64,000 bases of DNA, taken from the NCBI GenBank assembly GCA_038733315.1, contig JAVYPJ010000001.1, positions 71,863 through 135,862 on the forward strand. Reading direction: 5' to 3'. This document shows positions 36,001 through 39,000 of this stretch, piece after piece. Position numbers: made by a program. Positions within the stretch are counted from its first letter, which is position 1. The number at the start of each line of letters is the position of its first letter. The DNA is from Candidatus Aenigmatarchaeota archaeon. Its GTDB lineage: Archaea > Aenigmatarchaeota > Aenigmatarchaeia > CG10238-14 > SpSt-28.

Positions 36001-39000
36001 TTTTTATCCTTATAATACATCTTTATTATTTCCGCTACCTCTTCATAACTTTTTTTATTATTTTTTTGCATCCATTCAATAACCTTAATTCTATCTTCTA
36101 TTTCTTTAATAGCGTTTTCCATCGTAATACCATATTTTTCACAGATTTTTGGAATCAGTAAGCTTTCACTTGCTTTTTCATAAGAATCTGTAAATGGATT
36201 CCATCTATATGTTATGTTTTGCATAACCTCACCCCTTTCATCGATTCCACCAATCTCCACAATCTCCTTAATTCTTCTAGCATATTCTCCTTTTTCTTTA
36301 GCCCTTTTCATTACTATTACAAAATCTAAGGCTTCTACTAGTCCGATTGGTAATTCTATTGGTGGAGAAATCAATCTTTTAACTAAGGAGCTAACATCTT
36401 CTGCATGGAATGTAGATATACTCGCATGACCAGAAGCCATACCTTGAAACATAACATAAACTTCTCTACCTCTTGTTTCCCCAACAATAACATATTCTGG
36501 ATTCATTCTAAAACTTTCTCTTAGTAAATCAAAAAGGGTTACTTCTCCATATTTACTTCCACTAGGAAGCGGTAAACCAAAACCTACTCTAGTAACTAAA
36601 GGAACCCAATGCTCATGAACAAATCTCAATTCTCTTGTATCTTCTATACTTACAATCTTGGCATCTGGTCTAATAAAAATTCCTAAGCTATTTAAAAAGC
36701 TCGTTTTTCCACTTCCTACACCGCCAATTATTAAAAAAGATGTTTTATGCTCTATTAGAAACCATAAATATGCTAAAATTTCGCTATTTACAGTTTTTAA
36801 GTCTATTAATTCTATTGGAGAAAATGGTTTCTCAGTAAATTTTCTTATAGTAAAAGATGGGCCTTTTTGAGATATCTCTTCGCTAAAAGTTGCGCTAACT
36901 CTTGAGCCATCCGGTAAAGTTCCTTCTAAAATGGGTTCAGCATAAGATACGTATCTTCCACATTTTTGAGATAATTTGATTATGAATTCCTTTAGCTTTT
37001 CTATATCTCTAAAAATAATATTAGTTCTTATGTTTCCAAAGTATCTATGAGTTACGTATATTGGCAAATTAACTCCACTACAGCTTATGTCCTCTATGTA
37101 TGGATCGTGCATTAATGGCTCTATTTCGTTTAAACCTATAAAATCTCTAAAAATATAATAACTAATTTTCAGAAAACTTTCGCTATCAACCTTAATTTTC
37201 AATATACTTATTACTTTCTTAATAGCCTCTTCTACTGTTTTATTTAGTATTTCTTTATTTTTAACTTTTTCTAAATCTATGTCCAAATATTCTAAGATAA
37301 GCTCTTTTATTCTTTCTAACGTTTTCTTCTCACTATCATTTAGCTCTGGCTCTATTACTTCGTAAAAAATACTTTTATCTTCTTTGTTATAGAAAATGTG
37401 AGCATATGCATATGGTTTTATTAATTCATATTTTATATTTAGATTTTCGATTTTCTCCGGGATTTTTATTTCAAGTATTTCCATAAAATTAATATATCTT
37501 CAACTTTTTTCTAACAGCTTTTCCAGGCTGAACAACCCCTAAGAATCTTGCACATTTTGGGCAAACTCTTAATTTAATAGTGGATAGACTTACTAAATTC
37601 GGATTTATACTTTTAACAATTACAGCATCTTTTAATGTCTGTTTTTTATTTAAAACAAATGTTTTATATCTAGGATATAATCCGCCGCATAAATCGCAGT
37701 GTATATGATATTCGTTACCTCTAGCTTTTGTGTGCTCATATGTTCTTTTATATGGAGCTTTGCTTATCGGCATAGAAAAAATATCTTAAAAAATATATTA
37801 ATATTTCTCTGTTCTATCAAAATCGTAATACGATGCTATTTTCTCAAAAAATCCTTTTAAATCTTTATCGTTACTAAAAATCTTTTCTATAAGTTTAAAT
37901 AAATCGTATCTACAAATTGGCTTTCCTTTTAATTCTTTTAGCCTTTCTATATATTTTTCATCTACTTTTCTTTTTTTGAGAAGCTCGATTATTTTTTCTA
38001 GTATTGCGTCATTAATATCACTCTTTGGTGGAGTTAAGAAAAGCGGTTCTTTACATACAACACAATTAATTACAGAGCTTGGACTTTCTTCTTCTAAAAT
38101 TTCCTCATAATCATCAAATTCTTCATAAAAATCAAATTTGAAGCGCAGGAAACTCTCAGTTAATATTTTATTTAGGTTCTTTATCGACCGGGCATAAGGG
38201 CAATTTCCTCCCCGGTCGTTGTCTTTAATGTCTTTGATGGGAATATCATTTTACCTAAGCATACTGTATTAGAATATGCCCATCCACAAGAACTATAAGA
38301 AATAGAATAATCTAAGAAAGTTTTATGTAAGCTGCTTAGCTTGATGTTTTTTTGATTCCTGGTCATACTACCTATAAATTTAAAATAGTAATAATTCTAT
38401 ATTTAAAGATTTCTATTATTTATTATTAGTTTTTATAACGAGTATATTTTAAATTTATGGATTTTGAAGTTTTTTTTAATTTCATAAAAAATAAGGATTT
38501 ATTAAAAGAAAAAATTAAGGGAATTAAAGAGACTCCAAAAATAAATTTAAAAAATGTTTGGAAAAATTATTTGCCAAGAGAAAAAGGGGATTGCTGCGTA
38601 GCAATAGATGGAAGCTACAATTATCTAAAATTCAGATCTATGATTTTTTACGTTATTAACATTTCATCTGTTTTTTATTATAATGACGAAAAAATAGAAA
38701 CCAAAAGTTTTCCAGAGTTTAATGTTACAGAAGATTTTCTATTCTTTGAAGATGTTTTAAGGTCTGAAATGATTAATAGAGAACTCGAAATTGCATCCAA
38801 TCTTTGCAAAGATTTTAACGTTATGATAGATGGCTCTTTAAACTCTTTCCTAAACTTTATAACAAAAGATAAAAGAAAGGAAATTTTGAGTAAATTTGAA
38901 AGCACAAATAAATTAGTTTTTTCTATATCAAAAACACCAATTAAAAAAATAGATGAAAGTATTGAGATGGGCTTTTCTGATATGTTTGAAAAATATAAAG

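Follow-up and report, generated by a model that had tools for sequence, protein, structure and literature searches.

We describe here a split gene in a genome of Candidatus Aenigmatarchaeota (G000 below), whose mRNA probably contains a mini-intron of 11 nt that is predicted to form a bulge-helix-loop motif and to be removed by tRNA-type splicing. Positions are those of the window, i.e. the whole stretch of 64,000 nucleotides that was analysed, unless a contig is named. The gene lies on the minus strand in two frames: the 5' frame runs from an ATG at 38366 to a stop at 38183-38181 and encodes 61 amino acids, and the 3' frame is open over 150 codons (38250-37801) without a single Met. The two overlap by 66 nt, within which lies a GC-rich hairpin, and splicing in silico joins them into one frame for a 185-aa protein. 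An earlier note on this DNA had proposed this layout of an ATG-led 5' frame and a start-less 3' frame, together with the geometry of the motif (8-bp helix, 3-nt bulge, 4-bp helix, 7-nt loop) and the removal of contig positions 110056-110066 to give 185 amino acids; all of it was recovered when frames and motif were re-derived from the sequence. The features of the locus are as follows.

38400..38414, minus strand: BRE/TATA-like archaeal promoter element, putative in function, found by regular expression about 48 nt upstream of the first ATG
38205..38366, minus strand: exon 1, from the first ATG to the predicted 5' cut, 54 codons, supported by the stop count per frame
38247..38249, minus strand: second in-frame ATG of exon 1, a possible alternative start for a 146-aa product, suggested by the Met position in genomes of the genus
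38185..38218, minus strand: bulge-helix-loop motif (8-bp outer helix, 4-bp central helix, 7-nt loop, 3-nt bulge), from sequence, covariation and folding
38194..38204, minus strand: predicted 11-nt intron (contig 110066-110056), from the endonuclease cut rule applied in silico
38181..38183, minus strand: stop codon ending the unspliced 61-aa frame, from frame reading
37798..38193, minus strand: exon 2, 131 codons plus stop, with CxxC and Cys-Arg-aromatic-Asp motifs and a helical domain, and with homologues in 27 of 371 genomes of the phylum
37489..37773, minus strand: downstream neighbour outside the element, given for context, a probable ribosomal protein eS26 (weak match, E 7e-4)

The outer helix of the motif is formed by the pairing of 38218-38211 with 38192-38185 (8 bp) and the central helix by that of 38210-38207 with 38199-38196 (4 bp); between the arms lie a loop of 7 nt (38206-38200) and a bulge of 3 nt (38195-38193), and the cuts are placed two bases 3' of the central helix on each strand. 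Refolding confirmed the free energy of -18.9 kcal/mol given earlier for this hairpin (z -3.45), which was equalled by 2 of 200 shuffled sequences. The hairpin forms an island of 60% GC in a gene that elsewhere has 17-37% GC per 30 nt. It is not a strict bulge-helix-bulge, having a loop of 6-8 nt in place of a second 3-nt bulge closed by an inner helix, and hence is classed as a bulge-helix-loop. The features of the hBH class, i.e. a 4-bp central helix, a 3-nt bulge and an outer helix, are all present, with the bulge being 3 nt long in 10 of 10 aligned sequences; passages of PMC4090602 give the rule of a 4-bp helix with a 3-nt bulge. Rfam returned no match at the motif in five loci. As far as can be read from structure and genomic setting, the motif is of the kind predicted for an endonuclease-spliced bulge-helix-loop intron.

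In the mechanism we propose, transcription would give the gene a short leader, and translation would start at the ATG nearest the promoter. The mRNA would fold into the motif, which is similar to an anticodon arm, and the tRNA splicing endonuclease would cut two bases into the loop and two into the bulge, after which RtcB and archease would join the exons. The loss of 11 nt would put the start codon in frame with the conserved, putatively zinc-binding domain, and the unspliced mRNA would yield only the 61-aa peptide. The parts covered of four data sets, i.e. about 3-5% of each of three raw metatranscriptomes and one contig set, yielded no read from this stretch. The promoter expression was matched at -36 to -49 in six of the nine genomes that bear the motif, and the exon 1 frame contains no stop, compared with six and four in the other two frames. 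Across the 27 homologues exon 1 is free of stops in every case, compared with 9.6% per codon in the other frames, a contrast that arises partly by construction, since the ATGs were picked among open reading frames reaching the junction; the independent part of this evidence is that no other ATG occurs within 60 nt upstream in seven of the nine motif-bearing genomes. Exon 1 varies from 29 to 54 codons across the genus and, in agreement with the earlier note, is poorly conserved as protein; it looks like a carrier for the start codon. A Met is found 15-16 codons 5' of the junction in six of the seven genus genomes, and the second ATG of G000, at 38249, could likewise serve as a start. The gene had been placed just upstream of eS26, and the same neighbour is indeed read in all seven genus genomes, with the eS26 identity itself being only weakly matched. 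A terminator scan of the locus gave no site. On the other side the gene is transcribed divergently from a nurA-herA pair (window 38457-40693, plus strand).

Homologues of the 3' frame were found in 27 of the 371 genomes of the phylum, all within one order, and none of the 27 contains an internal stop. Nine of these genomes carry the motif, namely all seven of the genus and both genomes (G101 and G102) of genus g43, which belongs to another family; it is also present on one metagenome contig (L083), a near-copy of the G002 locus. The earlier claim that the motif occurs throughout the genus and in another family with compensatory changes was thus upheld, here with two genomes of that family and one metagenome contig; genome handles in this text differ from those used before, and the per-genome list was therefore re-derived and not matched one to one. 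A second metagenome locus (L084) was judged spurious on reading. A scan of the genome collection listed 18 loci, and no new junction type was noted from the listing.

In the alignment of 10 motif sequences, 89.7% of 116 cells are paired, a kind of score that relatedness alone can inflate, and two-sided changes occur in eight of the 12 pairs; neither value was reached by any of 500 shuffles. Controls slid along the sequence pair at 33-63%, and the central helix is paired at 100% in all 10 sequences. In each of the seven genus genomes, the motif that scores highest within 300 nt is the one extending the open frame back as far as the promoter-proximal ATG. The motif of G101 and G102 is missing from the top two scan matches because its outer helix is interrupted, and was read directly from the sequence. 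Under constrained folding G101 gives the exact motif and G102 a version with one extra loop-closing pair, the motif being the lowest-energy fold in neither unless the start region is masked; such masking lets it form. In these two loci (L039, L040) the first 24 nt of the 5' frame can form a stem of 10-11 bp with the 5' arm of the splice motif, and the two structures are mutually exclusive.

The lengths of the predicted introns follow from the loops, which are 7 nt in six genomes, 6 nt in G003 and 8 nt in both G101 and G102, so that introns of 11, 10 and 12 nt, respectively, would be removed. The exon phases are 0/0 in eight of the nine genomes and 1/1 in G002, where both sides have shifted together, and the predicted cut restores the open reading frame in silico in all nine; the earlier observation that introns of 10, 11 and 12 nt each fit the frame of their own genome therefore held. 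The in-frame stops of G101 and G102 stand at different places, both inside the predicted intron. Taken by frame alone this evidence amounts to three length classes, or about 1 in 27 if these are independent, and becomes persuasive together with the fixed helix-bulge geometry. We make no claim of two origins of the motif, as a single shared origin was not rejected (p-AU 0.374, 27 rows). An uninterrupted homologue containing both exon peptides was not found among 19 proteins examined from listings of 52 and 8 matches. As noted before for one genus genome, an ATG in the 3' frame lies upstream of the motif, here in G006, which could thereby bypass splicing; the matching ATG of G005 is closed by a stop. 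In addition, G003 has a second short copy of the C-terminal domain (L006, G003:C18:4380-4643), which has its own ATG, lacks the motif and is located in another gene run.

Without splicing, the change needed to express the protein would be a -1 shift in six of the nine genomes, a +1 shift in G003 and stop read-through in G101 and G102. Programmed -1 ribosomal frameshifting, stimulated by the hairpin and taking place within the overlap of 66 nt, is an improbable explanation, though G000 is among the six and its near-canonical heptamer ends 4 nt short of the hairpin, all 18 sister genomes described below share the -1 offset, and one archaeal cellular precedent, fucA1, is described in passages of PMC8211752. 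As the earlier note had argued, it fails for the genomes with 10- and 12-nt introns, i.e. G003 with its +1 requirement and G101 and G102 with their in-frame stops. Furthermore, the 3' frame of G002, G003 and G005 closes 2-3 nt ahead of the hairpin, and therefore leaves no room for a hairpin-stimulated slip upstream. Canonical -1 frameshifting uses an X XXY YYZ heptamer 5-9 nt before a structure, according to passages of PMC8211752; the motif-bearing genomes share neither a common heptamer nor a uniform -1 offset, and the fixed 4-bp helix and 3-nt bulge would be left unexplained. Transcriptional slippage on a G-run finds runs of 6-7 G in four of the nine genomes, but it is very improbable: the run is just 4 long in G000, G101 and G102, opposite indels would be needed in G003 and in the rest, and no indel removes the in-frame stop of G101 or G102.

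The motif might also be a genuine endonuclease site at which cleavage destroys or truncates the mRNA, with the 3' frame being made from a non-AUG start of its own, which we consider slightly less probable even than frameshifting. Gene callers do start the relatives P0002, P0018 and P0084 at alternative codons just after the hairpin, and short stand-alone homologues of the C-terminal domain exist. On the other hand, the codon at this alternative start differs between genomes and sits in the paired 3' arm, and if the RNA were cut but never ligated, the locking of exon phases through loops of three lengths would have no explanation. That the gene is a pseudogene or an assembly error with an incidental hairpin might be thought from its being uncalled or truncated in the annotations; this explanation, as improbable as slippage, is already largely refuted by the intact 3' frame of all 27 homologues, by the recurrence of the split in separately assembled genomes and by the covariation of the stems. 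Among the mechanisms tested, predicted splicing is the sole single one that fits all nine motif-bearing genomes.

The motif is rare in the G000 genome as a whole. A strict scan of its 733 kb gave 114 motifs, two of which are frame-restoring, and the one of these without its own downstream ATG is this site. A relaxed scan gave 1950 motifs, of which 16 are frame-restoring and lack an ATG of their own; the site in question ranks second of the 16 by score and is the sole one with a fully paired central helix, the first-ranked site having a mismatch there and its joined frame passing through a tRNA in antisense. The earlier note had given the site the strongest outer stem among 22 frame-restoring candidates; in the present scans the motif is nearly unique in the genome. 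The top score of the relaxed scan, at about C1:227770-227846, belongs to an 11-bp GC-rich stem around some 55 nt beside a tRNA-Asn gene, possibly a small RNA.

G000 encodes a single splicing endonuclease of 397 amino acids at C2:44242-45432. Among solved structures it matches 4fz2 best, along its full length and at E 2.9e-80; 4fz2 is the epsilon2 endonuclease of ARMAN-2. RtcB and archease are present as well, side by side; the RtcB gene (C2:267525-270278; L053, L054) has a long in-frame insertion within an open frame of 971 aa, which is probably an intein. All 19 genomes of the family, with G000 among them, have an endonuclease match of epsilon2 length, as do a few genomes from two other families; several g4 genomes have both a long and a short endonuclease gene. 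Enzymes of the epsilon2 type cut relaxed bulge-helix-loop motifs, as stated in passages of PMC5829648 and PMC12397907. The earlier argument from this enzyme type thus holds for G000 and its family. The two genomes with 12-nt introns, G101 and G102, have only a short match of about 190 aa and yet contain tRNA genes with loop introns of 11-12 nt; these tRNA genes indicate that loop motifs are probably cut there anyway. In both g43 genomes some 1.5 kb separates the split gene from the endonuclease gene (L130:12722-13288; L133:6415-6981), with an intron-bearing tRNA-Val between them, and in G110 the distance is 5.7 kb.

In most of the 15 intron-bearing tRNA calls of G000 the inner helix is minimal or missing and the bulge is A-rich; the shortest intron among them is 17 nt long. 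As a control for shorter introns we took 11 tRNA genes from parts of G101 and G102 and 20 stretches chosen by length from G002, G003, G005 and G102. These yielded seven clean loop introns of 10-12 nt in four relatives, each spliced to a proper tRNA by the same cut rule: 10 nt in Thr(GGT) of G003 and Arg(CCT) of G002, 11 nt in Val(CAC) and Gln(CTG) of G102, and 12 nt in Thr(CGT), Gly(GCC) and Val(GAC) of G101. The remaining control stretches were intron-less Leu or Ser tRNAs, had longer introns or were ambiguous. One mismatch in the central helix is present in five of the seven, and G003, the genome with the 10-nt mRNA motif, also has a 10-nt tRNA intron. These short tRNA introns of relatives support the predicted splicing of the mRNA motif.

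Several other tRNA features were observed in G000. In seven of its tRNA introns a stretch antisense to the anticodon loop of the same tRNA is followed by box D-like and box C-like motifs, all read by eye; they lie in the following tRNA genes.

C1:190074-190179, C1:369479-369597, C1:377869-377967 and C2:115924-116032: tRNA introns with box D/C-like motifs
C2:206553-206660, C2:275163-275267 and C3:7405-7518: the remaining tRNA introns with box D/C-like motifs

In the intron of tRNA-Gln, position 34 lies opposite the fifth base ahead of box D. The seven look like cis-acting C/D guide introns, a role known only for tRNA-Trp. A tRNA at window 29991-30079 (plus strand) was miscalled by ARAGORN as Arg or Phe; minus a 17-nt loop intron, it reads as tRNA-Ala(CGC).

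The other 18 of the 27 homologues are also split and lack a bulge-helix-loop motif, as had been said of homologues outside the genus; in all of them the frames are offset by -1 at a G-run whose position in the gene is roughly constant. These are not degenerate copies of the motif, and they carry a different conserved element, in which a kink-turn-like pattern with invariant columns begins 5 nt after the G-run in all 18.

L025:1496-1557, with 17 homologous loci: frame junction with a G-run, a spacer of 5 nt and a kink-turn-like motif, from pattern and alignment

The consensus of a kink-turn comprises a canonical stem, a 3-nt bulge, tandem G-A/A-G pairs and a non-canonical stem, and each of these is found in the sister element. 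A stop directly follows the G-run in 17 of the 18 genes. The core pairs never vary, and 78-425 of 500 shuffles reach the observed covariation values. The element uses codons that are rare in G000, e.g. an Asp codon used in all 18 that makes up 11% of the Asp codons of G000, which points to a constraint on the RNA. A uniform splice geometry for these genomes was rejected, since the best fit under relaxed rules covers 12 of the 18 and the frame offset is constant although the start-proximal stem changes phase. The G-run pairs with a strand immediately downstream of the start codon, forming a duplex of -9 to -20 kcal/mol in the 18 genomes, -21 and -23 in G101 and G102 (no other genus being as strong) and -2 to -5 in the genus of G000. 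We give about an even chance to the candidate reading that a -1 frameshift in the sister genes is stimulated by a protein-bound kink-turn. Their G-rich shift site is atypical, and six of eight g4 genomes have, shortly after it, an in-frame Met that might be used as a start. The distribution shows that the split is family-wide, and it is probably regulatory; the sister homologues also imply that the family can be expressed without this motif, and expression without splicing stays a rival.

The encoded protein has a core of CxxC and Cys-Arg-aromatic-Asp motifs with four helices and is predicted to be of a zinc-binding type. An N-terminal zinc ribbon is present in many relatives and absent from the G000 protein, and the short stand-alone homologues have a fourth Cys. 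The source label of one close protein relative is Ca. Aenigmatarchaeota. Sequence searches of Pfam, NCBIfam, PHROG and PDB gave no match that would assign the protein to a family. Of two identities considered, RNA polymerase subunit N was dropped because the true subunit N gene is present in all five of five genomes, and phrog_1444 because it was matched by 1 of 45 members. Foldseek gave no match at E <= 0.001, the best Z values being 5.3 and 5.2, and Atlas hits were at 0.91 or lower. Seven of the best 16 rows of the fold search are ATP-cone proteins, at a best Z of 5.2 (rmsd 4.0, 78 aligned) that lies below the trust level of the tool, and the ATP-cone sequence profile was not recovered (profile-profile probability 0.5% against 20 ATP-cone domains). 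The neighbours of the split gene are mostly translation genes and tRNAs. Our best guess, which we hold low, is that the product may be a small zinc-dependent regulator or an accessory factor of translation or RNA processing.

Speculatively, the intron could act as a regulatory gate tying the level of the protein to the capacity for tRNA splicing. A broader proposal, which we consider rather unlikely, is that interchangeable RNA devices at one homologous G-run report RNA-processing capacity, i.e. the 10-12-nt intron in nine genomes and a -1 frameshift stimulated by L7Ae and the kink-turn in 18. The start-proximal strand of G101 and G102 would then sequester the motif, with splicing permitted when a ribosome occupies the start codon. 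The regulator that tRNA-type splicing switches on would be the product itself, a zinc protein whose helical domain resembles an ATP-cone, and thus an archaeal counterpart of HAC1/XBP1. Splicing of HAC1/XBP1 shifts the frame and switches on a regulator. It is likewise a tRNA-type splicing of mRNA that uses tRNA ligase, according to passages of PMC4090602, but the cuts are made by IRE1 and not by the tRNA endonuclease.

The closest known system is the intron of the cbf5 pre-mRNA in Desulfurococcales and Sulfolobales, which, in the passages of PMC2738675, is 16-44 nt long, lies inside the coding frame in a BHB-like structure, is removed by the endonuclease and is proposed to be a negative regulator. 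The element described here likewise interrupts a protein-coding frame and is predicted to be removed by the splicing endonuclease through a BHB-like structure; however, it belongs to an unrelated gene and lineage, measures 10-12 nt and is a pure loop without an inner helix. Splicing of cbf5 has been shown by experiment and intron-less relatives of it exist, whereas in the present case splicing is predicted from sequence. The host gene is not Cbf5/TruB: there is no such Pfam or NCBIfam match among the families listed (best 25 in the alignment scans), and the protein has 131-185 aa and a different motif set. The BHB site in the 5' UTR of HVO_1309 of Haloferax volcanii is also an mRNA substrate of the splicing endonuclease but, being in the 5' UTR, restores no reading frame (passages of PMC7714728). 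Relaxed hBH or bulge-helix-loop tRNA introns have the same geometry and size in G002, G003, G101 and G102, with the difference that here the host RNA is an mRNA and the product an open frame rather than an anticodon loop. For the 18 sister genomes the closest analogue is the -1 frameshift of fucA1 in Saccharolobus solfataricus, a gene in two overlapping frames (passages of PMC8211752); fucA1 uses an A-rich heptamer, whereas the sister genomes have a G-run and a kink-turn-like element, and its mode does not fit the 10- and 12-nt cases. Apart from the 5' UTR site, cbf5 was in 2020 the sole archaeal mRNA named as carrying a BHB intron, in passages of PMC7714728. Passages of PMC2738675 cite unconfirmed predictions of archaeal mRNA introns, and the literature searches listed neither a further confirmed case in an archaeal coding region nor a report of the present intron.

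The predicted endonuclease substrate is only 34 nt long, and the epsilon2 enzyme class has been made recombinantly, according to passages of PMC12397907. Introns of 10-12 nt would be shorter than any of cbf5 (16-44 nt), and gene callers miss or truncate genes of such a split layout. The element of the sister genomes is a candidate for a further programmed frameshift in archaea. A spliced mRNA would be a rare case in archaea, and if the prediction is true, tRNA-type splicing of mRNA would not be peculiar to cbf5 but would extend to a second gene, unrelated to it and from a DPANN lineage.
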